The position numbers and the translations under genes are program-made. Below the pieces are notes generated by a model. It was not told the origin of the DNA. It was given only the letters and a program-made list of their open reading frames with translations, and made no database searches. 32,000 nucleotides of DNA from Archaeoglobus fulgidus DSM 4304 (GTDB taxonomy: Archaea > Halobacteriota > Archaeoglobi > Archaeoglobales > Archaeoglobaceae): contig NC_000917.1 in assembly GCF_000008665.1 (NCBI RefSeq), positions 150,001-182,000 on the forward strand. The letters are read 5' to 3'. This document shows positions 4,649 through 31,669 of the stretch, piece after piece; positions within the stretch are counted from its first letter, which is position 1; every line of letters starts with the position of its first letter.

Positions 4649-4652
4649 GCAC

Positions 4653-7343
4653 CTACACCTCCACCTTCCTTACTGCACACGCAACCTCATTCCACGCTGT
4701 AGTGGGTTCCCAGATGCCGGGGACGAAGTAGACAATATGGGTTGGTTTAATCCAGGGGAAGGTCAGGCTGTTGTAGGATGTTCCTCTCAAATATCTGCTC
4801 CACCAGCCCTGCTCGAATATGATTACCGAGGGATGCAGTCCCTCATCCAGTACGGCATAGCCGTATACCCTGCCCCTGTCGTTGTAAACCTCTACAAGGT
4901 CTCCCTCAGCAATTCCGTTCTCCTTTGCTGTTATAGGATGCAACCAAACTCTCGGCCTGAAGTCCTGAAGCTCAAGCATCGTTATGTTGTTGCTGTGGGT
5001 GGAGTGAACTCTGTAGAGCGCGTTTCTGGTGATGTAAAAGTACCTGTATTTCCTCTTCGCTTCGGGATTCAGCCTGTACTCAGTATCAACAAACGGGTCT
5101 TTGTGAACTGGCAGAGTTTCCCCAAGGTCTATGAAAACGTCCTCCTCTTTGTAAAACTCAATTCTTCCACTTTTCACAAATCTCGCCGTTTTTTGAAGTG
5201 GAACAGGATAGGACTGGGGTGGGAAAGGCTTTTTAAGGTTTATCTGCTCCCAGAATGGAATCTGTCTTTTATTAGGGGTTGGCAGGTTCAATCTCACAGG
5301 TCCTTTTAGCAGTTTTTCAAGAGTTATCCCTTCCACAAGCTCGCCACCAGTCTTGAGCATGAGCTCGACAGCTTTCAGGGAGGCCTTATGTGCAATATTC
5401 CTTGCCAACCTGAAACTCCACGTCCCATCCTTTCTCGCCCTCTCCTCCTCATCGAAAAGCTCTGGATCAGGATAGAACTCAGAAATGCTGGATTTGAGCT
5501 CTTCATCGTTCCACTTCTGGACGAGTCTTTTGGCCAGCTCCTTGAAAATCCATATTTCTGGCATGCATTCGAAAAGTGGCTCGATCGCAGGCTGCTGGAG
5601 CTGGACGTAGGGATGGAGAATCGTTGCTGTTAGCTCGTACTTCTCGTACCATGCGACACCGGGCAACACCACATCTGCCCACTTGCATGAGGTCGTCATC
5701 TGGAAGTCTATCGCAACTATGAGTTCCAAGTCTCCATTCTCGGCGTATTCAATCATCCTGTTAGCCATGTTGTGCTGGTCGAAGGGATTGTTCCAGCCGA
5801 AGAGGAAAGCTTTAACATCGTTCTTAGGATAGGGGGTTTCTCTGTTGTATTTTTTGAACTCCTCGCTTTGCCTGTATTCCTTGTTCATCCAGAGGAGGTA
5901 GGTTACCCATTTATTCTTCCTACCCTTGAAGCTCCACCATGCTCCAAGAGGCCAGCGAATCTTGAACTGTCCAGCATATGTGGATATTCCTGCGCCACTC
6001 TTTCCGAGATTTCCTGTTAATGCAACAATCAGCGCCAGAGCCCTTCCCTTCAGGTCACCGTGGTACCACTGGTAATTACTCGCACCGTAGATGATGTGCA
6101 AAGGCTTTACGGTTGCCATTTCAAATGCAAGTCTTTTGATCATATCCACGTACTCGCCCTTATTTCTGTTTGGAGGAGTAATAATCTCAGCAACTTTTTC
6201 GGGGGTGTACTTCTGAACCTCCTCCTTTAGAAGCTGGAAAACCGGTTTTACCTTCACCCTTTTTCCGTCAACAAGCTCTACCTCAAATTCTCCTTCTATC
6301 GCAGGCTCAAAATCCCTCTCAAGGGTTTCTGGATTCACCGGCTTGAATCCCTCGTTGACGTCGTAAACGACGAACACATCTCTGTATTCTGGAACGTTTA
6401 GTTTTCCAGCAATCTCCTCAAGTTCCTTTACTTCCTTCGCCATCAGCCTTTTCTGGGTGTCCATTCTCACCAGCAGCGGCATGTCGGTGTATGTTTTGAT
6501 GAATTCCTCGTCATAGAGTCTGTTTTCAATTATCTCTCTCGCTATTGCCAGCGCGAAAGCTGAGTCGGTTGAAGGATTTATCTGCACCCATTCATCAGCC
6601 TTAGCTGCTGTGGGGCTGAAGTTCGGGTCCACTACAACAACCTTCGCCCCCCTCTCCGCAGCGATGTTTACGAACTTTGCATCTGGAAGGCGGGTGACCA
6701 TTATATTGGAGCCGAAAATGGCTATATACTTCGAGTTGGTCCATTCAAGGGACTCGAACTCCTCCGTTTGAACTCCGAAGGTTTGTGACCAGAAGGCTGG
6801 CAGGTCTCCATTCATCGTATAGCCGTGCAAAGCACTCCATCCGAACATGGATGCGAGTCTCATCATAGCCCCTTTGTGAACGTAGCCAGTCCCTGGAACC
6901 TGAATCGAAATTGCCACCGATTCCGGACCGTGTCGCTTCATTATGTCAGCCAGCCTGTCTGCAACGTAATCCAAAGCCTCATCCCAGCTCACAGCTTTGA
7001 ATTTCCCCTCTCCTCTTTTTCCCACCCTGATTAACGGCCTTTTCAACCTGTCCGGACCGTAAATCAAGTTCATCATTGACTGTCCCCTGAGACATCCCCT
7101 TGGGTTATATTCAGGCTCAGGATAATCTGCTGCCTGAGTGAGTGTCTCGATTCTGCCGTTGTAAACAAGCGCATCAAAACCGCATGCTCCCGTGCAGTTT
7201 GGTGAGCAAACCGACCTCACAGTTTTGATTTCGCCTGCATTTTGCTGCACTCCACGACTTTTCTGGAAGTAGCCAAGACCTAAACCGGAAGCAAAAGCAG
7301 TCGCTGCAGAGAGCTTGATAAAGTCTCTCCTGCTTACCTTCAT
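4653..7343 (-). CDS. Tat-exported bis-MGD molybdopterin oxidoreductase, catalytic subunit (DMSO reductase superfamily)
   Basis: 896 aa. It has a twin-arginine signal (MKVSRRDFIKLSAATAFASG) and an N-terminal Fe-S motif (CSPNCTGAC...C). Its length and operon context (FeS, NrfD and TorD genes) fit the family. Confidence 0.9.
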   Translation of the reverse strand: MKVSRRDFIKLSAATAFASGLGLGYFQKSRGVQQNAGEIKTVRSVCSPNCTGACGFDALVYNGRIETLTQAADYPEPEYNPRGCLRGQSMMNLIYGPDRLKRPLIRVGKRGEGKFKAVSWDEALDYVADRLADIMKRHGPESVAISIQVPGTGYVHKGAMMRLASMFGWSALHGYTMNGDLPAFWSQTFGVQTEEFESLEWTNSKYIAIFGSNIMVTRLPDAKFVNIAAERGAKVVVVDPNFSPTAAKADEWVQINPSTDSAFALAIAREIIENRLYDEEFIKTYTDMPLLVRMDTQKRLMAKEVKELEEIAGKLNVPEYRDVFVVYDVNEGFKPVNPETLERDFEPAIEGEFEVELVDGKRVKVKPVFQLLKEEVQKYTPEKVAEIITPPNRNKGEYVDMIKRLAFEMATVKPLHIIYGASNYQWYHGDLKGRALALIVALTGNLGKSGAGISTYAGQFKIRWPLGAWWSFKGRKNKWVTYLLWMNKEYRQSEEFKKYNRETPYPKNDVKAFLFGWNNPFDQHNMANRMIEYAENGDLELIVAIDFQMTTSCKWADVVLPGVAWYEKYELTATILHPYVQLQQPAIEPLFECMPEIWIFKELAKRLVQKWNDEELKSSISEFYPDPELFDEEERARKDGTWSFRLARNIAHKASLKAVELMLKTGGELVEGITLEKLLKGPVRLNLPTPNKRQIPFWEQINLKKPFPPQSYPVPLQKTARFVKSGRIEFYKEEDVFIDLGETLPVHKDPFVDTEYRLNPEAKRKYRYFYITRNALYRVHSTHSNNITMLELQDFRPRVWLHPITAKENGIAEGDLVEVYNDRGRVYGYAVLDEGLHPSVIIFEQGWWSRYLRGTSYNSLTFPWIKPTHIVYFVPGIWEPTTAWNEVACAVRKVEV

Positions 7344-19016: not shown

Positions 19017-19979
19017 TGTAGTATCCCAAAATTATTTCACAACCCTAAACCCAACTCTTGTGAGAAAACTAACGAACAAAAAGATCAAGTGGATCATCAA
19101 ACAGCTCGAAAAGGGAACACCAGTAAAGGAAATAGCTGCTGTGATGAGAGTTACACCAAGAAGAATCTACCAGCTTAAAAAGCAATACGAGGAAACTGGC
19201 CAGATCCCAGAACTAAAACAAGCAGGAAGAAAGCCCAAACCAATTGACGAGAAAACAGAGCAAATCATCCTGCAAGCCTACAAAAAATACAGGGTAAGTC
19301 CAGTACCTCTTTAAAAGCTGATAGAAAGAAATTACAGAATCCACATCCCCCACAACACCATATACAAAGTTTTACTCAAACACGGTTTGGTGGAGGAGAA
19401 CATGAACAAGAAGAAAAGGAGGAAGTGGGTTCGCTATGAAAGGACTCATTCAATGTCTTTATGGCAGGGAGACTGGAAAAAGCTTGGAGAGAAATGGATT
19501 ATAGCCTTCATGGACGATGCTTCCCGCTTCATCACCTGCTATGGAGTATTTGACTCTGCTACTACTGAGAACACAATCAAGGTGTTCAAGAAAGGATTCG
19601 CTGAGTATGGCATTCCGGATGAAATCCTCACAGACCATGGTACCCAATTTGTTGCAGCGAAAAGCAGAGAGAAGGCTAGGCACAGATTCAGAGAGTTTTT
19701 GGCCGAGAATGGAGTAAGGCACATTCTTGCGAGAGTGAACCATCCACAAACGAATGGGAAGATAGAGAGGTTCTTTGGGCTGATGGAGCAGAAGCTCCAT
19801 CTGTTTGATTCTTTGGATGAGTTCATTTATTGGTACAATTACGTTAAGCCTCACATGAGCCTGAATTTTGATGAACTGGAGACTCCTTACCAAGCTTTTC
19901 TGAGGAAGCTACCTGCTGAAAGGGTGTTTGAGTACGGGAGGTGGTTGTTTGAGGAGTGAAATTATTTCGGGATATCACA
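19017..19979 (+). mobile_element. Complete 963-bp insertion sequence (rve/DDE integrase type, IS481-like; the size matches the A. fulgidus element named ISA0963)
   Basis: Imperfect terminal inverted repeats: TGTAGTATCCCAAAATTATTTCAC at 19017-19040, versus the reverse complement of 19957-19979, TGTGATATCCCGAAATAATTTCAC. The element is flanked by a perfect 15-bp direct repeat. Confidence 0.85.
19060..19959 (+). pseudogene. IS transposase (HTH + rve integrase core) interrupted by one in-frame TAA at 19312-19314
   Basis: ORFs 19060..19314 and 19387..19959 are in the same frame. Read-through gives ...YRVSPVPL*KLIERNYRIHIPHNTIYKVLLKHGLVEENMNKKKRRKW.... The DDE triad candidates are in FMDDASRF, LTDHGTQF and HPQTNGKIERFF. 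Confidence 0.8.
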
Positions 19980-19994
19980 GAAAAACTTATTTTG
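19980..19994. repeat. Right copy of the 15-bp target-site duplication GAAAAACTTATTTTG
   Basis: Identical to 19002-19016 and directly abuts the right IS end. Confidence 0.85.
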
Positions 19995-20013
19995 ACAAAA
20001 AGTTAAAGTTTTC

Positions 20014-20434
20014 ATGGATTCAAAGGCAGTCTTAAAGGGAATGCTTGAGAAAGCCTACAGAATCGAGGCAGGATTTGAAAAACGAGGCTAATTTCAAAGC
20101 TTTTCTTGAGGTTATGGACGAGACTCAGAAAAAAGTTCTCTTTCAGCTCATTGCTGACTCTGAAAGGCATAAGGCCACGATTGAAGAAATCGCAAATAAC
20201 CTCGGAATTGAAATTGAGAAAAAGTCTGCGGAATTCGAGTTCAAGGACAGGAGGTTTTTTAACGAGATATACAAGCTTGAAGTGAGTGTAAGGTCTTTAT
20301 ACGAGCAGATGATATACAAATTTGGTAATCTTCTTGGTGAGGAAGTCGAGAAGTTAAAAGCACTCTTAAATGATGAAGAAAAGCACGCCAAACTTGTTGA
20401 AAAATTCGTAGACAAGACCCTCAGGATTGTTTGA
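20014..20434 (+). pseudogene. Ferritin-like / rubrerythrin-like diiron four-helix-bundle protein, frameshifted at an A5 run (20078-20082)
   Basis: ATG 20014 gives MDSKAVLKGMLEKAYRIEAGFEKRG and then a stop. The +1 frame (tracked ORF 20045..20434) continues NEANFKAFLEVMDE...DSERHKATIEEI...YKLEVSVRSLYEQM...NDEEKHAKLVEKF. Together these give the E / ExxH / E / ExxH ligand pattern. Confidence 0.65.
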
Positions 20435-20461
20435 GGGAAAACAGGAAGTTACCGTTTTCCC
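20435..20461 (+). terminator. Hairpin GGGAAAAC-(11 nt)-GTTTTCCC immediately after the ferritin-like stop
   Basis: A perfect 8-bp inverted repeat seen in the sequence. Whether it acts as a terminator in an archaeon is uncertain. Confidence 0.25.
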
Positions 20462-20565
20462 CCGAACAACAACTGACGAAATGAGCACGATTTGTTTATT
20501 TATGATGATAAAGTATTTATGAATACTCATACGAAATTATTATTCAATAAAAAAGGGGTGGTGGT

Positions 20566-22188
20566 ATGAGGTACAACCTGACCATAAAGAAGACCCTCTT
20601 TTTCCCCCTGCACGCCTTTCCGAACAAGGAGATAGTCTACAGGGACATCAACAGATACACCTACAGGAGATTCTACGAAAGGTTGCAGAGAGTTGCCAGC
20701 TCCCTTGAAAATATTGGGGCTAGGGGAGCGAAGATTGCCTTCATAGACTGGAACACGCACCAGTATCTGGAAGGGATGTTCGCCATTCCAATGATGGGCA
20801 GCATTCTGCACTGCGTAAACCTAAGACTGGCTCCAGAAGAGATAGTTTACACGATGCGCTACGTCGAGGACGACTTTGTTGTTATCAGGGACGAGTTTCT
20901 GCCCTTGGCCGAGAAGCTCGCTCCCCATGTGCCATCAGTGAAGGGCTGGATAGTGACGGGCGATGATGTGGACAAAGTCGAGACAAGCCTCAAGCCGGTT
21001 TACATCTGGGAGGATCTTGTTAAGGAGGGTTCGAGCTACGATTTTCCTGAGCTTGACGAGCATGAAACGGCGGTGGTTTACTTCACCTCAGGCACCACAG
21101 GATTGCCTAAGGCTGTCCACTTCTCCCACAGGCAGGTGGTGATGCAGTGCATAATCAACGGCCTTGCCCTTTCAGCCAATGAATCCCCAGCGAGGATGAG
21201 CTCTGCAGACACCATAATGCACATCCCGCCCTTCTTCCACGGAATGGGCTGGACTTTCCCGTATCTGGCAACAATGCTTGGAATGAAGCAGGTTCTGCCG
21301 GGAAGATATGAGCCTCAGGTAATGCTGGATTTGATAAAGAATGAGGGCGTTACCTTTGCAGGCGGGGTGCCGGTGTTCCTTAAAATGCTCATTGAGCATC
21401 CAGAGGCTGAGAAGTACAAGGATGCTCTGTCCAAGTTCAAGTTTGTGTGCGATGGTGAGCACCCGCAGAGAGTGCTTTTTGAGAGAGCTAAGCAGCTGGG
21501 CATAAAGATGATTGAAGCTTTTGGCATGTCTGAAGGAGTGGGGTTTACCTTTGCCGTTCTAAAGGACCACATGCTGGACTGGGACTGGGAGAGGCAGGTG
21601 GAGTATCTCAACAAGGCAGGCTTGCCCGCTCCCTTCGTTGAGGTCAGGATTGTTGACGATGAGGGCAAAGAGGTGCCGAGGGACTTCCAGACGATGGGTG
21701 AGATTCTCATCAGAAGTCCCGGCCTGACGGAGGGATACTGGAAGAATCCGGAGAAGACTGCTGAATCTTGGGATGAGGAAGGATGGTTCCACACCGGCGA
21801 TTTGGGAGTGTGGGATGAGGAGGGCTACATCCTGATTCTCGACAGGGCTAAGGACGTCATAAAGAGTGGAGGCGAGTGGATAAGCTCCGTAAGGCTTGAG
21901 GGATACATTCTGGAGCATCCTGCTGTCAGCGAGGCTGCAGTAGTTGCTGCGAGGAGCGAGAAGTGGAGTGAGAGGCCCATAGCCGTCGTTGTGCCAAAGC
22001 CCGGGATGAGCGTGACAGAGAAGGAGATAATAGACTTCCTGATGAAGAACTTCGTTGAGACGGGAAAGATGGCGAAGTGGTGGCTGCCTGACAGGGTTTT
22101 CATTGTGGATGAGATGCCGAGAACCACTGTGGGCAAGATAAACAAGAGGGCGATAAGGGAGAAGTACAAGGACCTCGTACTCCCCTGA
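20566..22188 (+). CDS. Medium/long-chain acyl-CoA synthetase (AMP-forming)
   Basis: 540 aa with the AMP-binding signature YFTSGTTGLPKAV, also GYWKNPEKT, WFHTGDLG and the C-terminal catalytic Lys region TTVGKINKR. GGGGTGGTGG lies before the ATG. Confidence 0.9.
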   Translation: MRYNLTIKKTLFFPLHAFPNKEIVYRDINRYTYRRFYERLQRVASSLENIGARGAKIAFIDWNTHQYLEGMFAIPMMGSILHCVNLRLAPEEIVYTMRYVEDDFVVIRDEFLPLAEKLAPHVPSVKGWIVTGDDVDKVETSLKPVYIWEDLVKEGSSYDFPELDEHETAVVYFTSGTTGLPKAVHFSHRQVVMQCIINGLALSANESPARMSSADTIMHIPPFFHGMGWTFPYLATMLGMKQVLPGRYEPQVMLDLIKNEGVTFAGGVPVFLKMLIEHPEAEKYKDALSKFKFVCDGEHPQRVLFERAKQLGIKMIEAFGMSEGVGFTFAVLKDHMLDWDWERQVEYLNKAGLPAPFVEVRIVDDEGKEVPRDFQTMGEILIRSPGLTEGYWKNPEKTAESWDEEGWFHTGDLGVWDEEGYILILDRAKDVIKSGGEWISSVRLEGYILEHPAVSEAAVVAARSEKWSERPIAVVVPKPGMSVTEKEIIDFLMKNFVETGKMAKWWLPDRVFIVDEMPRTTVGKINKRAIREKYKDLVLP

Positions 22189-22206
22189 TGCTCACACTTT
22201 GAGCAT
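22188..22206 (+). terminator. Hairpin ATGCTCA-cactt-TGAGCAT overlapping the stop codon, followed by a T-rich tract
   Basis: A 7-bp perfect inverted repeat, followed by aattcaatttttta. This is a speculative terminator or operator. Confidence 0.25.
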
Positions 22207-22274
22207 AATTCAATTTTTTAAGATGATAATGAATTTAAATTTGCTCATTAAATGTTATAAATTGGAGGTGAACT

Positions 22275-24263
22275 ATGGAGCCGAAAATTTTGTGGGAGCC
22301 GGATTCGGAGTTTATCAAAAACTCCAATCTGGCCGAGTTTGTTGAGTGGCTTTCTTCAAACAAGGGTCTCGATTTTGTGGTTTCAGAGAATGCGAGGGAG
22401 AACGTTGAGAACTACAAGAACCTCTGGAAGTGGTCTGTGGAGAACCTTGAGGACTTCTGGGAGAGCGTGTGGGAGTTCTTTGAGATTAAGAGCTACAGCG
22501 ATTACAAGACTGTTCTCGATGAAAGGAAGATGCCGGGAGCAAAGTGGTTTGAGGGGGCAACGCTGAACTATGCGGAGCATGCCTTTTTGAAGGCTGGTGA
22601 GGGAGAAGCGGTTGTTTACGTTAGAGAGGACGGTTTGAGGAGGGCTTTAACATGGAGCGAGCTGGAGAGGCAGACTGCAGCCTTTGCTGCTTGGCTTAAA
22701 GATATGGGTGTAAAGAAGGGAGACAGGGTTGTTGCCTACTGCAGTCAGGTTCCTGAAGCGGTTATTGCATTGCTGGCAACGGCGAGCATTGGTGCAATCT
22801 GGGCGGCCGTTGGTGGTGAGGTTGCGCCAAGGGCTGTTATTGACAGGTTCAAGCAGCTTGAGCCAAAGGTTCTGATCGCATCTGATGGCCACTTCTACAA
22901 CGGGAAGGAGTTCAACAAGCTGGAGGACATTAAGACCGTTGTCAGCGGCATCCCGAGCCTTGAGAGGGTTGTCTTGATTCCCAACCTCTACGAGTCCCAC
23001 GACCTGAAGCTTAGCATCCCACTCCACTATTGGGAAGAGACGGTTGATAGAAAGGAGAAGCTCACCTTCGAGCCTCTGCCCTTTGACCATCCACTATGGG
23101 TTCTTTACACCTCAGGAACAACAGGAATTCCGAAGCCCATTGTTCACGGGCATGGGGGGATAACGGTCGAGATCTTCAAGGGCTCCTTCCACATGGACTT
23201 CAAGGAGGGCGACCGCTTCCTGTGGTACTCCCCGCCCTCATGGATGATGTGGAACACTGTTGTTAGCGGTCTCCTCGCTGGAGCTACCATTGTCTTCTAC
23301 GATGGCAGCCCGCTTTACAACTTCCTCCAGCCGCTGTGGCAGATATGCGAGAAGGAGAAGCTGAACATCTTCGGAACGAGTGCTCCCTTCCTCCACGGCT
23401 GCATGAAATTCGGCCTGCAGCCCGGCTCGCAGTACGATTTGAGCAGCTTGAGAATGGTTGGCTCCACCGCCGCCCCGCTATCGCCTGAGGGCTTTGAGTG
23501 GGTTTACAGGAATGTTAAGGAGGACGTATGGCTGAACTCTGCAAGCGGCGGGACGGATGTGATGACGGGCTTTGTTGGAGGCTGCCCAATTCTCCCCGTC
23601 TGGAGTGGAGAGCTTCAGTGCAGGTGGCTGGGGACGAAAGTTGAGGCTTACAACATTGAAGGCAAGCCTGTAATCAATGAAGTGGGAGAGCTTGTCATCG
23701 AGCTCCCGATGCCCTCAATGCCCCTCTACTTCTGGAATGACAAGGACTTCAGCTGGTATAAAGAGAGCTACTTCAGCATGTTCCCCAACGTCTGGTGGCA
23801 CGGGGACTGGCTGATGATTACAGACAGAGGAACGGCAATAATCTTCGGCCGCTCTGATTCAACAATCAAGAGAAAGGGAGTTAGAATGGGAACTCTGGAC
23901 TTCTACAAGGTTGTCGAGAGTATGAACGAAATTATCAGCAGCCTCGTTGTTGAGGTCAAGGGCAAGATTTTCCTCTTCGTGGTTCCAGCACATGGAATTG
24001 AGGTCAACGAGGAGCTTAAGGAGAAGATAAACAGAGCCTTGAAAGAGAATCTCGGAGCCTACTTCGTTGCGGACTACATTATTCCAGTGCCCGACATTCC
24101 AATGACTTTGAACTACAAGAAGCTGGAGGTGCCGATAAAGAAGATTCTGCTCGGCTGGGAAGTGGAGAAGGCAGTGAACCTTGACAGCATAATGAATCCT
24201 GATGCCGTTTTCAAGGTCGTTGAGGCTGCAAAGCCCTACGTGGAGCAGCTGGAGGGAGAATGA
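22275..24263 (+). CDS. Acetoacetyl-CoA synthetase-type acyl-CoA ligase
   Basis: 662 aa. The N-terminus (ILWEPDSEFIKNSNLAEFVEWL...NLWKWSVENLEDFWESVWEFF) and YTSGTTGIPKPIVHGHGG are typical of the acetoacetate-CoA ligase family. GGAGGTGA lies before the ATG. Confidence 0.8.
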   Translation: MEPKILWEPDSEFIKNSNLAEFVEWLSSNKGLDFVVSENARENVENYKNLWKWSVENLEDFWESVWEFFEIKSYSDYKTVLDERKMPGAKWFEGATLNYAEHAFLKAGEGEAVVYVREDGLRRALTWSELERQTAAFAAWLKDMGVKKGDRVVAYCSQVPEAVIALLATASIGAIWAAVGGEVAPRAVIDRFKQLEPKVLIASDGHFYNGKEFNKLEDIKTVVSGIPSLERVVLIPNLYESHDLKLSIPLHYWEETVDRKEKLTFEPLPFDHPLWVLYTSGTTGIPKPIVHGHGGITVEIFKGSFHMDFKEGDRFLWYSPPSWMMWNTVVSGLLAGATIVFYDGSPLYNFLQPLWQICEKEKLNIFGTSAPFLHGCMKFGLQPGSQYDLSSLRMVGSTAAPLSPEGFEWVYRNVKEDVWLNSASGGTDVMTGFVGGCPILPVWSGELQCRWLGTKVEAYNIEGKPVINEVGELVIELPMPSMPLYFWNDKDFSWYKESYFSMFPNVWWHGDWLMITDRGTAIIFGRSDSTIKRKGVRMGTLDFYKVVESMNEIISSLVVEVKGKIFLFVVPAHGIEVNEELKEKINRALKENLGAYFVADYIIPVPDIPMTLNYKKLEVPIKKILLGWEVEKAVNLDSIMNPDAVFKVVEAAKPYVEQLEGE

Positions 24264-24703
24264 TGCAGAGCCTTTACTTTGAAGACTTTCAGGAAGGAAT
24301 GGAGCTTGAAACTGTTGGGAGAACAGTAACGGAAGCGGACATAGTGATGTTCGCTGCCCTCACAGGAGACTGGAATCCCATACACGTTGATGCAGAATAT
24401 GCGAAAACAACAATTTTTGGCCAGCGCATCGCCCACGGAACACTCACATTTTCCATCATGACCGGTTTGCTGATGAGGCTTGGATTTCTGGAGGAGACCG
24501 TTGTTGCCTTTTACGGCGTTGACAGGCTCCGCTTTACCAATCCCGTTTTCATTGGAGACACGATTAAGGCGAGAGCAAAGGTTGTGGAGAAGCAGGACAG
24601 GGGGCAGTTTGGTGTTGTGAAGATAGAAGCGAGTGTGGTTAAGCAGACAGGCGATGTGGTGCTGAACTGCATTCTGAGGGTTGCGGTGAAGAAGAAAGGC
24701 TGA
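24260..24703 (+). CDS. MaoC-like (R)-specific enoyl-CoA hydratase (hot-dog fold)
   Basis: 147 aa with the hydratase motif LTGDWNPIHVDAEYAKTTIFGQRIAHG. There is an ATGA start/stop overlap with the upstream gene. Confidence 0.85.
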   Translation: MMQSLYFEDFQEGMELETVGRTVTEADIVMFAALTGDWNPIHVDAEYAKTTIFGQRIAHGTLTFSIMTGLLMRLGFLEETVVAFYGVDRLRFTNPVFIGDTIKARAKVVEKQDRGQFGVVKIEASVVKQTGDVVLNCILRVAVKKKG

Positions 24704-24715
24704 GGAGGTGAGAAA

Positions 24716-25948
24716 ATGCACTTTGAATTCAACGAGGAACAGAGGATGATTGCCAATGCAGCAAGAGACATTGCAAAGGACTTCCCGCCTGAATACTGGA
24801 GGGAGAAGGAGGAGAATGGTGAGTTTGCGGAGGAGTTTTTCAAGGCTGTATGCGATGCGGGCTTCATGGGCATCGTGATTCCAGAGGAGTACGGCGGTGG
24901 CGGCTACGGGATGACTGAGCTTCTTATTGCCATGGAAGAGCTTTCAGCCAATGGCTGCGGTGCTGGAGGAGTGTGGTATTTTGTGCTGACTGAAGTTTTC
25001 GGGGCTTTGCCCATAGTAAGATACGGCACAGAGGAGCAGAAGGAGAAGTACCTGCCCAAAATCGCCAAGGGGGAGATGGAGTTCTGCATGGCCTTAACCG
25101 AGCCAGATGCGGGCACAAACACGCTGAGAATCAAGACTTTTGCAGAAAAAGATGGAGAGGAGTATGTCATTAACGGGAACAAGATTTTCATAAGCGGGGT
25201 TGACAGGGCGAAGGGGATGCTTCTTGTGGCAAGAACAACACCTCCTGAGAAAGCCCCAAGAAGAACCCTCGGTATTACACTTTTCCTCGTTGACCTGCCC
25301 AACGAGGCGGTTAAGTGGAATCCAATACCAAAGCACGCCATAAACTTCTCGAAAACCTGTGAGGTGAGCATAAACAACCTGAGAGTTGAAAGCAATGCGA
25401 TTCTCGGCGAGAAAGATCTGGGCTGGTATCTGCTGCTTGATGTCCTCAATCCTGAGAGGATGAGCGCCGCTGCAGGAGCAATTGGAGGGGCTAAGTTAGC
25501 GATAAGCAAGGCAGTTGAGTATTCAAAGCAGCGCAAGGTTTTTGCTGATCCGATTGGCAGCTATCAGGGTCTGCAGTTCCCCTTAGCTGAGGCCTATGCT
25601 GCCTTAGAATGTGCAAGGCTCATGATGTACAAGGCTGCATGGCTCTACGATACCAAATTTGCCGCTGAAGATGTCAAAGACCCGAAGAAGAGGGTGGAGA
25701 TGGCCGCTGTTTTCAGGGAGATAGGAGATGCTGCAAACATGGCTAAGGCTGTGGCTGTTGAGAACGCGCTGAAAGCAGTTTACTGGGCAATGCAGACCTT
25801 CGGCGGCTACGGCTACGCCAAGGAGTACGATGTTGAGAGGTGGTGGAGGGAGGTCAACCTTCTCCGCCTTGCACCGATAACACAGCAGATGGCTCTGAAC
25901 TACATAGCTGAACACATCCTCGGAATGCCGAGGAGCTACAGAGTTTAG
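24716..25948 (+). CDS. Acyl-CoA dehydrogenase (FAD-dependent)
   Basis: 410 aa with the typical ACAD pattern (ALTEPDAGTN..., GNKIFISG, QTFGGYGYAKEYDVERWWRE). Confidence 0.9.
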   Translation: MHFEFNEEQRMIANAARDIAKDFPPEYWREKEENGEFAEEFFKAVCDAGFMGIVIPEEYGGGGYGMTELLIAMEELSANGCGAGGVWYFVLTEVFGALPIVRYGTEEQKEKYLPKIAKGEMEFCMALTEPDAGTNTLRIKTFAEKDGEEYVINGNKIFISGVDRAKGMLLVARTTPPEKAPRRTLGITLFLVDLPNEAVKWNPIPKHAINFSKTCEVSINNLRVESNAILGEKDLGWYLLLDVLNPERMSAAAGAIGGAKLAISKAVEYSKQRKVFADPIGSYQGLQFPLAEAYAALECARLMMYKAAWLYDTKFAAEDVKDPKKRVEMAAVFREIGDAANMAKAVAVENALKAVYWAMQTFGGYGYAKEYDVERWWREVNLLRLAPITQQMALNYIAEHILGMPRSYRV

Positions 25949-25950
25949 CC

Positions 25951-27756
25951 ATGAAGGTTGTCAAAGACCCAGAGCTGAAAATTGAGCGAAAGGAATCGCT
26001 CAACAAGATGCTCTGGAACACCGTTCAGAGTCATCCAAGAGTGTCGGCCATTGGCTACTGGGACGATGGAAAGCTGAAATATCTCACCTACGAGGAGTTC
26101 TGGGAGAGGGTGAGGAAGCTATCAAAGTTTTTAATTTCTTCCGGCCTGCGGAAGGGAGACAGGGTTGCGATTTACGCCGACACACGCTATGAATGGGAGA
26201 TTGCCGACTTTGCAGTTCTAACTGCTGGGGGAGTGGTTGTTACAGTCCACAGCGTTCTTAACAGAGAGCAGGTTGAATACATCCTGAGAGACTCGGAGAG
26301 CAGAGTTGTTTTCACGGAAAAGAAGTATGCTGAAAACGTTCCTGAGGACTTTGAGGTTTACTTTCTGGAGGAGCTGGAAAAGCTTGTCGGTGAGGTTTCT
26401 GATGATGAATTCGAAAGCAGATGGAAGAGCGTTGAGCCTGACGACCTTGCAAGCATTGTTTACACCTCTGGCACCACAGGAGAGCCAAAGGGGGCGATGC
26501 TCACGCACTGGAACTGGAGGTTCAACTGCCACTCTGTGATGTCCATCACGCCCTTCTATCCCGGAGAGCCCCACATCTGCTATCTGCCATTGAGCCACGT
26601 TTACCAGAGGCTTGTTTTCTTTGCTGGAATTTCGAGGGCAGCAACAGCAGTTTTCTGCAGTCCCCAGCAGTTCCTCGAAACGTCAACAGCAGTGAAGCCT
26701 GTTGGACTAATAGTTGTGCCGAGAATTCTTGAGAGGGTGAATGCGGGAATTGTCGAGAAAGTTGAGAAGTCACCAGCTTTGGCAAAGAAGATTTTCTACT
26801 GGTCGAGAGGAGTTGCCATTGAGTGTGGAAAGAGAATGAGCAGAGGGGAGAAATACGGCTTCTGGCTGAATATAAAGAGAATAATCGCAGACAGGCTTGT
26901 TTTCAGCAAAATTCGGGAGAACCTCGGCCTCACAAGAATCAGGTTTGTCTGCTCCTCTGCCGCAGAACTACAGAAGGAGCTGGCCTACATGTTCAATGGC
27001 ATGGGAATTCCCGTAATTGAGGGCTACGGAATGACAGAGACTGCAGCACCATCCAACCTCAATCCTGTCGGAAGGTTCAAACCCGGCACAGTTGGCCCGC
27101 CAATTCCCGGCATCGAGGAGGCGATAGCTGAGGATGGAGAGATTCTCGTCAGGGGAGACAACGTGATGAAGGGCTACTGGAGAAAGGAAGCTGAGACGAG
27201 AAAAACCTTCACCGAGGATGGATGGCTGAAGACAGGTGACCTTGGAGAGTTCGACGAGGATGGCTACCTCGTCTTTCTCGGGAGGAAGAAGCACATAATT
27301 GTCCTTGACACGGGTAAAAACGTTTCTCCTGTCCCTATAGAGGAGGAATTGCTCAAAAATCCGCTTGTGAGTGATGCGGTTATCATTGGTGACGGAAAGC
27401 CCTACGTAACTACCCTCATAGTCCCGAATTTCAGCATGCTCCTTGAGTTTGCCGATAAAAACGGAATTGAGTATGACAGGAGTAGAACGATTGTTCAGAG
27501 GAGCATTTCTGGAGAGGAGGAGATTGTGGCTGTTGATGAAAACCTTGTGGAGAATAATGCAGTTAAGGAGCTTTACGCAAAAATTGTTGATGATGTCAAC
27601 AGCAGGCTGGCAAAGCACGAGACAATCAAGAAGTTCAAAATTTTGCCTGAGGCTTTCAGCCTTGAGAAGGGGGAGATAACTCCAACTTTGAAGAAGAGGA
27701 GGCACGTCATTCTGAAGAGGTATGAGAAATTTATTGAGGAGATGTATAAGAGGTGA
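25951..27756 (+). CDS. Long-chain fatty-acid-CoA ligase (FAA1/FadD15-type)
   Basis: 601 aa with YTSGTTGEPKGAMLTH, EGYGMTE, GWLKTGDLG and a C-terminal TPTLKKRR motif. Confidence 0.9.
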   Translation: MKVVKDPELKIERKESLNKMLWNTVQSHPRVSAIGYWDDGKLKYLTYEEFWERVRKLSKFLISSGLRKGDRVAIYADTRYEWEIADFAVLTAGGVVVTVHSVLNREQVEYILRDSESRVVFTEKKYAENVPEDFEVYFLEELEKLVGEVSDDEFESRWKSVEPDDLASIVYTSGTTGEPKGAMLTHWNWRFNCHSVMSITPFYPGEPHICYLPLSHVYQRLVFFAGISRAATAVFCSPQQFLETSTAVKPVGLIVVPRILERVNAGIVEKVEKSPALAKKIFYWSRGVAIECGKRMSRGEKYGFWLNIKRIIADRLVFSKIRENLGLTRIRFVCSSAAELQKELAYMFNGMGIPVIEGYGMTETAAPSNLNPVGRFKPGTVGPPIPGIEEAIAEDGEILVRGDNVMKGYWRKEAETRKTFTEDGWLKTGDLGEFDEDGYLVFLGRKKHIIVLDTGKNVSPVPIEEELLKNPLVSDAVIIGDGKPYVTTLIVPNFSMLLEFADKNGIEYDRSRTIVQRSISGEEEIVAVDENLVENNAVKELYAKIVDDVNSRLAKHETIKKFKILPEAFSLEKGEITPTLKKRRHVILKRYEKFIEEMYKR

Positions 27757-27760
27757 TTAT

Positions 27761-28828
27761 TTGAGGATTGGAATTGTTGGTGTGGGTTTTAGTGAGTTTC
27801 GGATTCACGAGGAGCCCTTTTACAACGTGGCCTTTTTAGCTGCGAAAAGGGCTCTTGAGGATGCCGGAATTGAGAGGGGTGAGGTGGACAGCTTCATTCT
27901 TGGTGGTTACGACAACCTCGGGGTTGGGAGAACAATTTCGAACATGTACACAGCCCCTGCTGCTGGTGCGTATTTGAGGCATGAGATAAGGGTGAGCGAT
28001 GATGCTCTCTTCGCCCTTCCACTGGCCTTCATGAAGGTGAAGAGCGGCTCAGAGATTACGATGCTTCTCGCCTTCGGGCACAGCTCAGAAACGCCCATTG
28101 AGCTGGTTGAGCTGCAAAGCCTCGACCCCTTCTTCCACCGCCCTTTCAACCTCTCCCTGCCAGTCTTCTTCGCCATGCAGAGCTACGCTTACAGGGAGAG
28201 GTATGGCGTGAAGGAGGAAAAGATAGCCGAGGTTGTGGTAAGGATGAGGGAGAAGGGGGCGAAGAATCCAAGAGCCTACATAAGGGAGAAAGTAAGCGTT
28301 GAGGATGTTCTGAGCTCTGAAGTCGTTTCATCACCGCTGAGAAGGCTTGAAATGGCTGAGTGGTGTGATGGATGCGTTGCATTCATTCTTGCTGAGGAAA
28401 CGGTTGCGAGAAGGCTTTCCGACAGTCCAGTGTGGGTTAGCGGTCTTGGGTGGAGCGCTGAAAATTACTACTTCGACAGATCCCTGCATGACCTTCCTTT
28501 TGTTGCAAAAAGTGCGGAAATGGCCTTCAAAATGTCAGGAAAGGAGAGAAAAGACGTGGAAGCCTTAGAGATTTCCGATTTGACCGCTGATTATTACTGC
28601 ATGATTCTTGAGGCTCTTGGGTTTGCTGAGACGGGCAGAGGTTGGGAGTTCAATGGAGATGTCAATTTCTCAGGAGGAGCGCTATGCACCAACGCCTACG
28701 GCTCGACTGGAGCCTTCCTGCTCGCCAGCATCGTTGAGAGAATCAGGAAGGGAGAGATCGAGTGTGGGATGGCTCAATCGATGAGCGGCTACGCCCAGAA
28801 GTCTTGCGTTGCGATTTTGGAGGGATAA
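27761..28828 (+). CDS. SCP-x/thiolase-like protein lacking the nucleophilic Cys (Ser at that position)
   Basis: A TTG start at 27761 follows AGGTGA. The tracked ATG 27722 would overlap the upstream gene by 35 nt. The protein has a thiolase-like N-terminus (IGIVGVGFSEF) and C-terminus (NFSGGALCTNAYGSTG). The active-site stretch reads RVSDDALFALPLAFMKVKSG, where thiolases have xxxC(A/S)SGxxA...SG. Confidence 0.7.
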   Translation: MRIGIVGVGFSEFRIHEEPFYNVAFLAAKRALEDAGIERGEVDSFILGGYDNLGVGRTISNMYTAPAAGAYLRHEIRVSDDALFALPLAFMKVKSGSEITMLLAFGHSSETPIELVELQSLDPFFHRPFNLSLPVFFAMQSYAYRERYGVKEEKIAEVVVRMREKGAKNPRAYIREKVSVEDVLSSEVVSSPLRRLEMAEWCDGCVAFILAEETVARRLSDSPVWVSGLGWSAENYYFDRSLHDLPFVAKSAEMAFKMSGKERKDVEALEISDLTADYYCMILEALGFAETGRGWEFNGDVNFSGGALCTNAYGSTGAFLLASIVERIRKGEIECGMAQSMSGYAQKSCVAILEG

Positions 28829-28829
28829 A

Positions 28830-29972
28830 ATGAGAGTTGCGGTTGTTGGATTCGGTCAAACTCCCTTCAGGACAAAGAGGAAGGATAAAACCCATCCGGA
28901 GCTTGCCTTCGAGGCAATAAATGCCGCCCTCGACCATGCTGGACTGGAGATGAAGGATGTCGAGGCAGTAGCTTACGGCTGTATGGACCCCTTCGACGGT
29001 ATCTACTGCCCTGAGAGGTGGGATGCTACTGCAGCGGGCCTCGAAAAGCCGATAATGAAGATTTCCACTGGTGGCACAACGGGAATGACCACAGCCTTGG
29101 CGGCATACGAGCACGTTGCCAGCGGGCTTTTTGATTTGGTAATGGCCGTCTGCGTGCAGAGGGTAGGGGAGTGCGTTGATGCGCAGCCCGTTCTCAACAC
29201 AGCAGTCGACCCCATTTACGAGAGACACTCAGGTCTGGGAGCCATTCACGTAGCCTCCTTTCAGGCCACAGCATATATGGCAAAGTATGGCGCAACTGAA
29301 GAGGACTTGGCGTGGGTGAGCGTCAAGGATCACAAAAATGCCCTCAAGAATCCCTACGCCCACATTAAGATGGATGTGAGCGTCGAGGGTGTTCTCAAAA
29401 GCAGGGTTGTCTGCTCTCCCCTCAAGCTGCTGGAGTGCTGTCCGAGGAGCGATGGTGCTGCTGCCGTCATCTTCGCTTCTGAAGATGTGGCGAGGAAGAT
29501 AAGGGACAATCCAGCTTGGGTTGTTGCGGAGACAACAATCAGCGACAGCTACTACCTCGGTGACAGGCCGAGCTTTGCCGAGTGGGATTCATTGGCAATA
29601 GCTGGCAGAAGGCTTTTCAAGGCTGCTGGAATTGAGCCAGATGAGATAGATGTTGCCGAGCTATACTCTCCCTTTACCATTCAGGAGATTCTGGAGCTGG
29701 AGGCTCTGGGCTTTGCCAAGAAGGGAGAGGGGAAGAACTTTGCGAGGGAGGGTGTAACCTTTGTGGATGGCGATTTTCCCACCAACCCCTCAGGAGGGGT
29801 GCTGTGCACAAATCCCATTGGAGCTACTGGCCTTGTGAGGTTTGGTGAAGCTGCCCTGCAGGTGATGAACGAGGCGAAAAATCAGGTTGATGGTGCTGAA
29901 GTTGCACTTGCACACGCATGGGGTGGGACTTTGCAGTTCCACACCCTCGCTTTGCTTTCTTCAAGGAGGTGA
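28830..29972 (+). CDS. SCP-x/thiolase-like protein lacking the nucleophilic Cys (Gly at that position)
   Basis: ATG 28830 lies 1 nt after the upstream stop. The protein begins MRVAVVGFGQTPF... The active-site stretch reads KISTGGTTGMTTALAAYEHVASG, and the C-terminal motif is NPSGGVLCTNPIGATG, where GHP is usual. Confidence 0.8.
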   Translation: MRVAVVGFGQTPFRTKRKDKTHPELAFEAINAALDHAGLEMKDVEAVAYGCMDPFDGIYCPERWDATAAGLEKPIMKISTGGTTGMTTALAAYEHVASGLFDLVMAVCVQRVGECVDAQPVLNTAVDPIYERHSGLGAIHVASFQATAYMAKYGATEEDLAWVSVKDHKNALKNPYAHIKMDVSVEGVLKSRVVCSPLKLLECCPRSDGAAAVIFASEDVARKIRDNPAWVVAETTISDSYYLGDRPSFAEWDSLAIAGRRLFKAAGIEPDEIDVAELYSPFTIQEILELEALGFAKKGEGKNFAREGVTFVDGDFPTNPSGGVLCTNPIGATGLVRFGEAALQVMNEAKNQVDGAEVALAHAWGGTLQFHTLALLSSRR

Positions 29973-29976
29973 TTTT

Positions 29977-30432
29977 ATGGATGTGATGGAGTTTGAGGTT
30001 TGGTGGAAGATTCCCTTCAAGCATTCTGCTGGCTTGCACGCCACGAAGTTCTTTCAGGGGCTGAAGGAGGGGAAGATTTTTGGAGTGAGATGTGATAGGT
30101 GCGGGAGAGTTCTCGTTCCCCCCAGAGCCTTCTGCGAGAGGTGCCATGTTGAAACCAAAGAATGGGTTGAGGTGAGCGATGAAGGCGTGGTTGAAACACT
30201 GACAGTAACCTACATGAAGTTTACTGGCTTACCTGACCCGCCTTACGCCATTGGTGTTGTCAGGCTCGATGGGGCAGATACGGGAATGCTCTGCTTTCTT
30301 GGCGGTGTTGACTTGTCAGACTGGAGGAAAATCCACGAGACATTCAAACCGGGAACGAGGGTTAAAGCAGTGTGGAAGGAGGAGAGGGAGGGGAAGATAA
30401 CGGACATCCAGTACTTTGAACCAGTGAAATAA
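29977..30432 (+). CDS. DUF35 protein (rubredoxin-like zinc ribbon + OB fold), a thiolase-associated scaffold type
   Basis: GGAGGTGA precedes ATG 29977. The sequence RCDRCGRVLVPPRAFCERCH (CxxC...CxxC) is followed by an OB-fold-like segment (VETLTVTY...PYAIGVVRLD). The tracked upstream start at 29887 overlaps the thiolase gene. Confidence 0.8.
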   Translation: MDVMEFEVWWKIPFKHSAGLHATKFFQGLKEGKIFGVRCDRCGRVLVPPRAFCERCHVETKEWVEVSDEGVVETLTVTYMKFTGLPDPPYAIGVVRLDGADTGMLCFLGGVDLSDWRKIHETFKPGTRVKAVWKEEREGKITDIQYFEPVK

Positions 30433-30504: not shown

Positions 30505-31095
30505 ATGATAGACAGGATCATATCGAAGCTTGTCTCCGCTGGAGCAGACTTAAGCTCGAAAAACGCCATAAAGGCTGCCCTGAAAATTCTCGGGGAGGAC
30601 GAAGGGCTTGCGGACTACATTTACATTCTCGTAAAGAACAGAGCCTACAGGAAAGACTGGGCGGAGCTTCCTGTGGAAAAAAGGCTGATATTCCTGCCCC
30701 AGTGCCTCAGAAACTCGAAGAGCTGCCAGGCAGAGCTAACTGAGAAAGGATACATTTGCAAGAAGTGCGGGGGCTGCGATATAGCCGAAATTGTAGAGAC
30801 TGCGGAAGAGCTTGGGTATAAGCACGCCTACATAGTTCCCGGGGGAAGCATGATTTACAGAATCCTAAAAAGTCTGGATATGGGTTCCTTTGCGTGTCTC
30901 GGCGTTGCTTGTCTTCCTGAGCTTTGCGAGGCCAGTGAGAGGCTTACGCTGAAGGACATTCCACACCAGTGCGTCCCCCTTCGGAAAACAGGATGTGTGG
31001 ACACGGAGGTAGATGTCGAAGAGGTCAAGGCTTTTTTAAAAGCTGGTATAGAGCATGAAGAAGAAAAAGCTGGAAATAGTGCTGGAAAAAATTAA
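30505..31095 (+). CDS. DUF116-family Cys-rich protein
   Basis: 196 aa. LIFLPQCLRNSKSCQAELTEKGYICKKCGGCDI fits the DUF116/COG1852 pattern as I recall it. Confidence 0.6.
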   Translation: MIDRIISKLVSAGADLSSKNAIKAALKILGEDEGLADYIYILVKNRAYRKDWAELPVEKRLIFLPQCLRNSKSCQAELTEKGYICKKCGGCDIAEIVETAEELGYKHAYIVPGGSMIYRILKSLDMGSFACLGVACLPELCEASERLTLKDIPHQCVPLRKTGCVDTEVDVEEVKAFLKAGIEHEEEKAGNSAGKN

Positions 31096-31669
31096 GGGTT
31101 TTCAGAATCCGAAAATAGAGCTTGAGCAATACGTCACCCCACCTTCGCTTGCTGCCTTCATAGCAACCACAGCGGAACTTAACGGTGACCTCGACCTAAT
31201 CATCGATTTGGGGTGCGGTACGGGAATTCTGGCAATAGCTTGCTCACTGCTTGGCCACTACTCAGTTGGAGTTGATCTGGATGTTGAGGCATTGAAAATA
31301 GCGAGAGATAACGCAGCAGAGCTTGGGGTTGAGGCAGACTTCGTGAGGAGCGAGGTATCGAAATTCCGGTGCAAGAGGAAAGTTACAACTGTGATGAACC
31401 CTCCTTTCGGCATACAGAGAAAGCACGCGGACAGACCTTTTTTGCTCAAAGCCTTTGAGATTTCGAAGGTAATTTACACCGTTCACTCCGCAGGAAGCTC
31501 AAATTTCGTTCGAAAGCTTTCGGAAGAGCATGGCTTTAAAGTTACGTACCAGTGGAACTTCTCCATCCCCCTTAAGAGGACCTACTCTTTCCACGAAAAA
31601 GCATTTAAGTATATACCCGTAGAGGTGTTTAGGATTGAGAAACATGAGATTCGTAATGCCGGGAGATAG
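31055..31669 (+). CDS. METTL5-like SAM-dependent methyltransferase (predicted RNA N6-adenine methylase, COG2263-type)
   Basis: LEQYVTPPSLAA, the SAM motif DLGCGTGILAI, and the catalytic NPPFG motif. It overlaps the upstream gene by 41 nt. Confidence 0.8.
   Translation: MKKKKLEIVLEKIKGFQNPKIELEQYVTPPSLAAFIATTAELNGDLDLIIDLGCGTGILAIACSLLGHYSVGVDLDVEALKIARDNAAELGVEADFVRSEVSKFRCKRKVTTVMNPPFGIQRKHADRPFLLKAFEISKVIYTVHSAGSSNFVRKLSEEHGFKVTYQWNFSIPLKRTYSFHEKAFKYIPVEVFRIEKHEIRNAGR

Follow-up and report, generated by a model that had tools for sequence, protein, structure and literature searches.

Positions 20566-30432 of the window analyzed here (the whole 32-kb stretch of Archaeoglobus fulgidus DSM 4304 contig NC_000917.1 from position 150,001 to 182,000) are occupied by nine co-oriented plus-strand genes with short gaps or none between them, eight of which are itemised in Table 1. 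The last three encode two thiolase-fold proteins, here called A and B, and a DUF35 protein; we argue that this trio may act as a retro-aldol lyase. A first-pass annotation of the sequence had described a beta-oxidation-like cluster in which the place of the thiolase is taken by two Cys-less paralogs and a DUF35 protein, next to a MaoC hydratase and an acyl-CoA dehydrogenase (ACAD), and all the genes it named are present where it had placed them. It had also pointed to the lack of a canonical thiolase and of a 3-hydroxyacyl-CoA dehydrogenase in the cluster, and this observation extends to the entire window: Pfam and NCBIfam scans and seed searches found no thiolase with catalytic residues across the 32 kb, and neither a 3-hydroxyacyl-CoA dehydrogenase (3HCDH) nor a short-chain dehydrogenase/reductase (SDR) was found there. 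The window has a GC content of 0.49 and its best protein matches are to metagenome-assembled genomes (MAGs) of Archaeoglobus and to A. neptunius. One metagenome contig (LDZQ01000631.1) is 98% identical across positions 19603-29473, and colinearity with two related loci, L001 and L087, begins at 20496.

Table 1. Genes of the cluster and gene sets at related loci. Positions are those of the window unless a locus (L) is named.
Feature	Position	Strand	Basis or remark
Medium/long-chain-type acyl-CoA synthetase (start of the cluster)	20566..22188	+	Pfam AMP-binding and AMP-binding_C
Acetoacetate-CoA ligase family enzyme (beta-ketoacid-CoA ligase)	22275..24263	+	NCBIfam NF002937, TIGR01217
MaoC-type (R)-specific enoyl-CoA hydratase	24260..24703	+	PF01575, 1.3e-38
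Acyl-CoA dehydrogenase (ACAD)	24716..25948	+	Three ACAD Pfam domains
FadD11-like fatty-acid-CoA ligase	25951..27756	+	Pfam AMP-binding, 3.7e-71
Subunit A, thiolase-fold protein without catalytic residues	27761..28828	+	Alignments, AlphaFold, 64 orthologs
Subunit B, Cys-less thiolase-fold protein	28830..29972	+	Likely ATG 28830; signature T80-G-G82-x-T-G, Y279-x-P-F, N328-P
DUF35 protein, Cys4 zinc ribbon and OB fold	29977..30432	+	Likely ATG 29977; Pfam zf-ChsH2 and OB_ChsH2_C
Paralogous DUF35/thiolase-like sets	L006 14846-17062; L008 2707-6088; L013 13004-16365; L087 1-987		
Carboxylase-like sets	L006 222-5358; L013 1314-5899; L085 3266-8208; L092-L095; L165		Often with an acetoacetate-CoA-ligase gene
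Phytoene-desaturase-family flavoprotein	L083 9232-10728; L085 1607-3106; L103		

The open reading frame (ORF) of A spans 27722-28828; its true start is likely the TTG at 27761, which is preceded by GAGGTGA, and homologs are 355 aa long. The starts of A, B and the DUF35 gene each have a GAGGTGA- or GGAGG-type motif upstream (GGAGGTGA in the case of the DUF35 gene), and the gaps are 1 nt between A and B and 4 nt between B and DUF35. These Shine-Dalgarno-like motifs and 1-4 nt gaps mark the three genes as translationally coupled. An oligo-T run follows the DUF35 stop. Both Pfam domains of the DUF35 protein (PF01796 / PF12172) score above cutoff, and C39, C42, C53 and C56 are present.

The register of B was set by HMMER alignments to solved thiolases and by a MAFFT alignment in which 193 relatives were combined with PDB reference sequences. 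Both place Gly82 at the site of the nucleophilic Cys (KISTGGTTG against KIEAACASG). The HDCF motif is replaced by Y279-S-P-F (LYSPF against VHDCF), and Asn328 stands at the His site of the GHP motif, with a one-residue deletion (GGVLCT-NP against GGLKAAGHP). With neither the nucleophilic Cys, nor the acid/base Cys, nor the catalytic His, B is predicted to be unable to form an acyl-enzyme or to perform thiolysis. These replacements recur throughout the 64 trios of our first (A-seeded) genome scan, from which all residue counts given here are taken: T80, G82 and G85 are found in all 64, G81 and T84 in 63; E277 is conserved in 63, Y279 in 55 (with Gln in the other 9), P281 in 54 and F282 in 62; N328, G365, G366 and F370 are again invariant, and Q369 occurs in 61. 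B proteins share new motifs of their own, TGGxTG, YxPF, NP and GGxxQF, and Y279 is invariant among the 44 closest homologs of B, in which several phyla are represented.

AlphaFold models of A and B (pLDDT 88-90) display the full five-layer thiolase fold of the SCP2 type, and in B the helix at the old nucleophile site begins at residue 81. Foldseek TM-scores of 0.81-0.92 were obtained against the solved structures 6esq/6et9, 7yvy, 6hrv, 4yzo, 7pxp, 6ok1, 5m3k and 9myr. Close matches of both proteins include the DUF35-partnered enzymes 6et9, 7pxp, 6ok1, 5m3k, 9myr and 9vbo, and the thiolase chains of 6et9 and 6esq are among the best structural matches of B. One of the solved relatives, the thiolase-like protein ST0096 of Sulfolobus tokodaii (4yzo), has no nucleophilic Cys (VDNTSGSGG) and keeps His in both HDMA and GHP, a third and distinct pattern of catalytic loss within the same subfamily.

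The first-pass annotation had read the nucleophile as Ser in A and as Gly in B. The Gly of B is confirmed, and HMMER, MAFFT with PDB references and AlphaFold agree that no Cys lies in the nucleophile register of either protein. The residue of A in register is Ala82, however, according to both the MAFFT alignment and the AlphaFold model (pLDDT 89.6), in which a strand (residues 74-78) and a helix starting at residue 82 are laid out as in B; the Ser in question, Ser79, is out of register, and a three-residue deletion in A corresponds to the distal end of the nucleophile-site helix. A further has S-D-L-T at the HDCF motif and T-N-A at GHP (Asn311-Ala, with a one-residue deletion), so that the GHP His is lost in both paralogs, as had been proposed. 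None of these sites is held constant among A orthologs: the Cys site is G in 43, A in 17, S in 3 and V in 1; the first HDCF position is D in 18, M in 12, S in 6, C in 5 and H in 5, with other residues in the remainder; the His site is N in 38, Y in 10 and W in 6, among others. The AGAYLxxEI stretch of A looks invariant only because of the pattern used for scanning, and it was excluded from the evidence.

This drift bears on the suggestion, also made in the first-pass annotation, of an unusual acyltransferase in which Ser79 of A would serve as nucleophile. A Ser is indeed found near the nucleophile loop (RVSDDA), but it lies three residues upstream of the structural Cys position, residue 79 is Ser in only 22 of the 64 orthologs (T in 19, A in 12, G in 10), and both the His and the HDCF residues are missing from A as well; we regard Ser-dependent acyl transfer as having next to no likelihood. 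By sequence and fold searches, A matches solely chains of the SCP2 and acetyl-CoA C-acetyltransferase (ACAT) type, with no HMG-CoA synthase (HMGS) or PhlA chain among the top 50, and the idea that A is a degenerate HMGS or a PhlA-like subunit was dropped for this reason. We propose that A is a catalytically dead paralog and an inert partner of B.

Should B be considered inert as well? The whole trio could be a non-catalytic scaffold or an acyl-CoA-binding module that organises neighboring enzymes, since A and B both lack every canonical thiolase catalytic residue. DUF35-thiolase pairs are known to serve as assembly hubs, as in Sulfolobus, where Saci_1121/1120 has a MaoC dehydratase and a reductase as binding partners (bioRxiv 10.1101/2024.07.05.601840), and thiolase-fold subunits can be inert, as PhlA and MucA are (PMC2954200, PMC12960953). 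The known hubs nevertheless still have one catalytic thiolase-fold subunit. Moreover, the former active-site loops of B are invariant across phyla, with a new shared motif, while those of A drift, which is the pattern expected of a working pocket in B. The scaffold proposal of the first-pass annotation thus suits A but not B, and for the trio as a whole we consider it unlikely.

To delineate the family, we combined a genome scan seeded with A homologs (80 loci) with a metagenome scan seeded with B homologs (80 more); a total of 165 related loci were available, in which gene order was read by phmmer-based synteny. The A-B-DUF35 order is found in most of them. Hosts include Archaeoglobi, Thermoplasmatota, the Asgard lineages Lokiarchaeia and Freyrarchaeia, Dehalococcoidia (Chloroflexi), Syntrophales and other Deltaproteobacteria, as well as Actinomycetes, Alpha- and Betaproteobacteria, Acidobacteria and Mycobacterium. 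Among these, Lokiarchaeia, Freyrarchaeia, Thermoplasmatota and Chloroflexi have close homologs of B, at 55-62% identity. The Cys-less signature is a family trait and not a case of local decay, and the trio is widespread across archaea and bacteria. The zinc ligands of the DUF35 protein (CxxC...CxxC) are retained in 53-61 of the 64 orthologs. Two gene fusions support a physical association of the subunits: an in-frame A-B fusion of 760 aa in an alphaproteobacterial MAG (L039, 7953-10235) and a B-DUF35 fusion of 731 aa carrying an additional zinc ribbon (P0217).

No curated NCBIfam model passes for A or B, nor for their orthologs in four other phyla. The best scores are 325 bits for B with PRK08313 (cutoff 514) and 183 bits for A with PRK06066 (cutoff 516). 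Several candidate identities were rejected on this basis: BbsB (172 bits, cutoff 750), the archaeal ACAT model AcCoTHIOL_METTL (far under its cutoff, also for the orthologs of four phyla) and the 'lipid-transfer protein' models PRK07937 and PRK07855, for which A and B both score far under the cutoffs. Two Mycobacterium trios (L077 and L078) were considered as candidate Ltp3/Ltp4, and no family model passes for them either. A thiolase-like gene beside a long DUF35 protein in L030 proved to encode a canonical thiolase with Cys, HDCF and GHP. Public names of A- and B-type proteins are limited to 'thiolase family protein' or 'acetyl-CoA C-acetyltransferase', and no description of the trio family was found in the literature mentioning both DUF35 and thiolase.

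A bacterial subclade of B, in which QAPF replaces YxPF, is represented by nine loci (L050, L052, L055, L059, L060, L061, L069, L077 and L078). An SDR gene lies within about 1-4 kb of B in three or four of these 9 loci, against 6 of 114 Tyr-type loci; this subclade may catalyse a different reaction.

Neighboring genes were counted within 10 kb of B in 64 lineages, retained after dereplication at 85% identity of B; because many contigs are short, all counts are lower bounds. An ACAD is present in 35 lineages and a hydratase in 40 (MaoC in 14, crotonase in 29), the two occurring together in 29, and an acyl-CoA ligase is present in 34. In Archaeoglobi outside the clade of the window, the order is acyl-CoA synthetase (ACS), A, B, DUF35, MaoC, ACAD, often followed by FadD, while a deltaproteobacterial locus reads ACS, ACAD, MaoC, A, B, DUF35. 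Gene orders differ yet the partners stay: the link to hydratase and dehydrogenase survives rearrangement. A Pfam census covering 139 of 232 neighboring ORFs revealed no 3HCDH or adh_short family with two or more members. Searches with Hbd and PhaB sequences as seeds detected a 3HCDH at 1 of the 165 loci; among the 114 Tyr-type loci, 6 have an SDR no more than 3 kb from B. We also considered Baeyer-Villiger monooxygenases (BVMOs) as ketone-consuming neighbors and rejected them: FMO-like Pfam matches amount to 6/139, none with the BVMO fingerprint.

In the A. fulgidus cluster itself, the hydratase and the dehydrogenase look competent, to judge from their motifs. The MaoC protein, whose best solved relatives are MaoC hot-dog proteins, keeps the hydratase-2 motif F-AA-L-T-G-D-W-N-P-I-H-x5-A. 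Aligned with 5lnx, the ACAD has a Pro at the Glu site of the medium-chain (MCAD-type) YEGT motif, and its Glu is found in LNPER, which we take to be the base position of isovaleryl-CoA and long-chain dehydrogenases (IVD/LCAD). Compared with its solved relatives, this ACAD also has about 20 inserted residues (roughly 313-335). Among the ligases, the first synthetase passes the PRK06187 cutoff (531.7 bits, cutoff 476), the acetoacetate-CoA ligase (AACS) family enzyme passes both NF002937 (876.6 bits, cutoff 639) and TIGR01217 (719.9 bits, cutoff 520.9), and the third ligase scores 331 bits with the FadD11 model, under its cutoff.

The first-pass annotation had likened this gene set to the actinobacterial steroid side-chain system of ChsH1-ChsH2 and Ltp2, a comparison that we find apt. 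For this analysis, fragments of TcLtp2 (6ok1, residues 142-338) and CtSal (9myr, whose chain index is offset by 24 from the numbering of PMC12329534) were included in a joint MAFFT alignment. Tyr279 of B aligns with Tyr294 of TcLtp2 (YDHF) and Tyr302 of CtSal (YDCY), which are experimentally supported general bases (PMC12329534). In CtSal, Gly89 occupies the nucleophile position and contacts the substrate hydroxyl through its backbone NH; Ltp2 is proposed to have an equivalent Gly (PMC12329534). Tyr344 of Ltp2 and Gln352 of Sal take up the position of the thiolase His (GG+6, counted from the conserved GG), where B has Asn328. B shares three replacements with these aldolases: Cys to Gly, His to Tyr in HDCF, and loss of the GHP His. 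The Tyr residues of Ltp2 had been called not evident in the A. fulgidus proteins; the base Tyr is in fact present, whereas the second, Tyr344, is missing.

The likeness to Ltp2-ChsH2, the actinobacterial steroid side-chain retro-aldolase, thus covers a thiolase fold with no catalytic Cys and a non-His residue at the His site, a Tyr opening the HDCF-equivalent motif (YDHF in Ltp2, YSPF in B), a DUF35 partner, which Ltp2 requires, an ACAD and a MaoC hydratase acting earlier in the pathway, and no hydroxyacyl-CoA dehydrogenase step. Unlike Ltp2, B lacks the second catalytic Tyr and has a Pro at the site of Ltp2 His296; the DUF35 protein of the trio is separate and not fused to MaoC, and an extra, putatively inert thiolase-fold subunit is present. 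Furthermore, the host is an anaerobic hyperthermophilic archaeon in which steroids are not expected, and identity between B and Ltp2 is 28%. With the proteobacterial bile-acid aldolase Sal-Shy(DUF35), the trio has in common a Gly at the nucleophile site, the Tyr base, a residue with an amide side chain where the thiolase His was (Gln352 in Sal, Asn328 in B), a DUF35 partner and a MaoC hydratase. Here the identity is 24%, the essential acid Cys304 of Sal corresponds to Pro281 of B, and Sal, a homodimer between flanking DUF35 domains, has no A-type partner.

A different set of likenesses is seen with the tripartite complexes HMGS/ACAT/DUF35 (6et9), PhlABC (5m3k) and MucABC (9vbo), which show the same order of a thiolase-fold protein, an SCP2-type thiolase-like protein and DUF35. 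PhlABC and MucABC each have a first subunit without catalytic activity (PMC2954200, PMC12960953), as we propose for A. However, the first subunit of these complexes is HMGS-like while A is SCP2-thiolase-like, and their second subunit keeps the Cys nucleophile and the GHP His (MucB and PhlC retain CxS and GHx; PMC12960953) where B has Gly82 and Asn328; neither subunit of the trio has the Cys. The Ltp3-Ltp4 pair, which we compare by description, consists of adjacent thiolase-like proteins known from genetics only and proposed to form a heteromeric aldol-lyase that cleaves hydrated branched acyl-CoA by aldol chemistry in the degradation of C24-branched sterol side chains (PMC6678751). Finally, in the benzoylsuccinyl-CoA thiolase BbsAB (7pxp), which serves an anaerobic pathway resembling beta-oxidation, an SCP2-type thiolase-fold subunit is likewise paired with a DUF35 zinc-finger protein. 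BbsB itself is a true thiolase, and BbsAB is not known to contain a second thiolase-fold subunit. The trio combines features of the aldolases and of the tripartite complexes yet differs from each in defining features: it has no counterpart of the aldolase acid residues, no ACAT Cys/His and no HMGS-like first subunit.

Among the three options of the first-pass annotation, the heteromeric aldolase or lyase is the best supported. Our favored reading, to which we give about an even chance on the strength of residues and gene context, is that B is a retro-aldol 3-hydroxyacyl-CoA lyase with A as inert partner and DUF35 as clamp. The CoA ligase would activate an acid, the ACAD would form the 2-enoyl-CoA and MaoC would add water, giving (R)-3-hydroxyacyl-CoA. 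Tyr279 of B, acting as general base, would then take the proton of the hydroxyl, and the C2-C3 bond would be broken to release acetyl-CoA and an aldehyde or ketone. The backbone NH of Gly82 may hold the substrate hydroxyl and Asn328 may polarise the thioester. In the predicted complex, A would shape or enlarge the pocket, or stabilise B, and DUF35 would bridge A and B. This aldolytic step would replace the dehydrogenase and thiolase steps of beta-oxidation.

Several observations weigh against this assignment. B offers no counterpart in the alignment of the catalytic acids of the aldolases, Tyr344 in Ltp2 and Cys304 in Sal: Pro281 (Pro/Ala in the family) stands at the Sal Cys304/Ltp2 His296 site, and Asn328 at that of Ltp2 Tyr344. 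Identity of B to Ltp2 and Sal is 24-28% (measured on fragments) against 31-34% to true thiolases, and in the Foldseek ranking Ltp2 comes 15th and Sal 42nd, no closer than true thiolases, so that the shared residues may be convergent. Nine of the 64 B orthologs, all bacterial, have Gln at Tyr279, while a Tyr-to-Phe variant of CtSal is inactive (PMC12329534): either the Tyr is not universally essential or those clades differ. Furthermore, in the census of 139 of 232 ORFs the aldehyde dehydrogenase family is not a common neighbor (two or more members).

Alternatively, B may be a decarboxylase of malonyl-type or beta-ketoacyl-CoA, in the manner of the Cys-less SCP2-thiolase-like protein of Trypanosoma (TbSLP) or of Cys-less ketosynthase partners. 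B resembles TbSLP in fold, and TbSLP, which has YDCF, slowly decarboxylates malonyl-CoA (PMC12329534). Its kcat is very low (0.005 per s), though, and the same study proposes that TbSLP is an aldolase; CtSal has no such activity, and no carboxylase for malonyl-type substrates is a conserved neighbor of the trio. We judge decarboxylation very improbable.

Two further kinds of neighbors inform on possible substrates of the lyase that we favor. Five lineages, that of the window among them, have an AACS family gene beside the trio, and a three-subunit hydantoinase-family enzyme resembling acetone/acetophenone carboxylase adjoins it in four lineages: two Archaeoglobaceae groups, a Freyrarchaeum contig, whose carboxylase-like small subunit matches Pfam Acetone_carb_G, and one of unknown taxon. 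Altogether, 7 of 64 lineages have an AACS or ketone-carboxylase gene next to the trio, Archaeoglobaceae and an Asgard archaeon among them.

These neighbors can be read in two ways. Since AACS-like and ketone-carboxylase-like enzymes would jointly yield a 3-oxoacyl-CoA needing cleavage, the trio could be a Cys-independent thiolase or Claisen-type enzyme, in which CoA attacks the keto group directly without an acyl-enzyme; the archaeal thiolase/HMGS/DUF35 complex does have, at the interface between subunits, a fused CoA site (PMC12329534; PMC12960953). But thiolysis without a Cys nucleophile is known for no thiolase-fold enzyme, the conserved ACAD and hydratase partners and the missing dehydrogenase would be left unexplained, and the Tyr/Gly/no-His pattern fits aldolases rather than thiolases. 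We find this explanation improbable.

Under the retro-aldol reading, the same neighbors hint at beta-branched substrates that yield ketones. We may go further and hypothesize, from gene neighbors only and with considerable doubt, that the trio is a tertiary-alcohol lyase in an undescribed anaerobic route past beta-methyl branches. Isovalerate from leucine, or an isoprenoid acid such as phytanate, would be activated by the ligase and converted by the ACAD, with its IVD-type base, to 3-methyl-2-enoyl-CoA; MaoC would then produce 3-hydroxy-3-methylacyl-CoA, a tertiary alcohol, and A, B and DUF35 would cleave it to acetyl-CoA and a methyl ketone (acetone in the simplest case). The acetone/acetophenone-carboxylase-like enzyme would carboxylate the ketone and the AACS-like enzyme would re-activate the resulting 3-oxoacid. 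As a tertiary alcohol is not oxidisable by a dehydrogenase, the missing dehydrogenase would be explained, and the proposal would account for every gene of the module. By analogy, it would follow the same chemical logic as Ltp2 and, putatively, Ltp3-Ltp4 (PMC6678751). The observations that we cite in its favor are the AACS/carboxylase neighbors, the IVD-type Glu of the ACAD and an Asgard flavoprotein: a 498-aa protein of the amine-oxidase/phytoene-desaturase family adjoins the B gene in three Asgard-type loci (Table 1) and may hint at isoprenoid-like substrates.

To our knowledge, every thiolase-fold retro-aldolase described so far comes from steroid degradation by aerobic bacteria. Should B be a lyase, the group would extend to anaerobic archaea and many bacterial phyla, with a third catalytic layout (Tyr/Pro/Asn) beside those of Ltp2 (Tyr/His/Tyr) and Sal (Tyr/Cys/Gln), and beta-oxidation would have an aldolytic route in place of its last two steps. 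If the beta-methyl route also holds, archaea would have a means of breaking down isoprenoid chains that requires neither oxygen nor a biotin carboxylase. There are consequences for annotation as well: these proteins carry the name acetyl-CoA C-acetyltransferase or thiolase but have none of the residues that this reaction requires. Thiolase/DUF35 gene pairs have been taken as evidence of fatty-acid synthesis or degradation in archaea, notably Asgard (bioRxiv 10.1101/2024.07.05.601840), and Cys-less pairs would be miscounted in such surveys.

In Archaeoglobi, further paralogous sets are located near the module, in the order DUF35, thiolase-like, thiolase-like, sometimes with a second DUF35 (Table 1). 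In the window, an integrase-core (rve) fragment (19387-19959) and a 129-aa ORF without family (20045-20434) lie immediately upstream of the operon. The equivalent place in L087 (1026-1583) is occupied by a 186-aa protein with no family match, whose N-terminus resembles a ribbon-helix-helix by eye. It is found with the module in six or more Archaeoglobi loci, but the window encodes no homolog of it. A probable regulator upstream of the A. fulgidus operon may have given way to a mobile element. Downstream, a DUF116 gene is followed by an overlapping 204-aa gene read by eye as a methyltransferase (30505-31669 in all). Both are retained only in the closest relatives (L001 and L087) and are thus probably outside the module. 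Genes upstream of position 20000 are unrelated to the trio: besides the integrase fragment they comprise NifS/NifU and a molybdopterin oxidoreductase set on the minus strand (2197-7343), which consists of a TAT-signal molybdopterin oxidoreductase, a 4Fe-4S protein, an NrfD-type membrane subunit and a NarJ-like chaperone, and which we take to resemble the (per)chlorate/nitrate-reductase-like locus of A. fulgidus.

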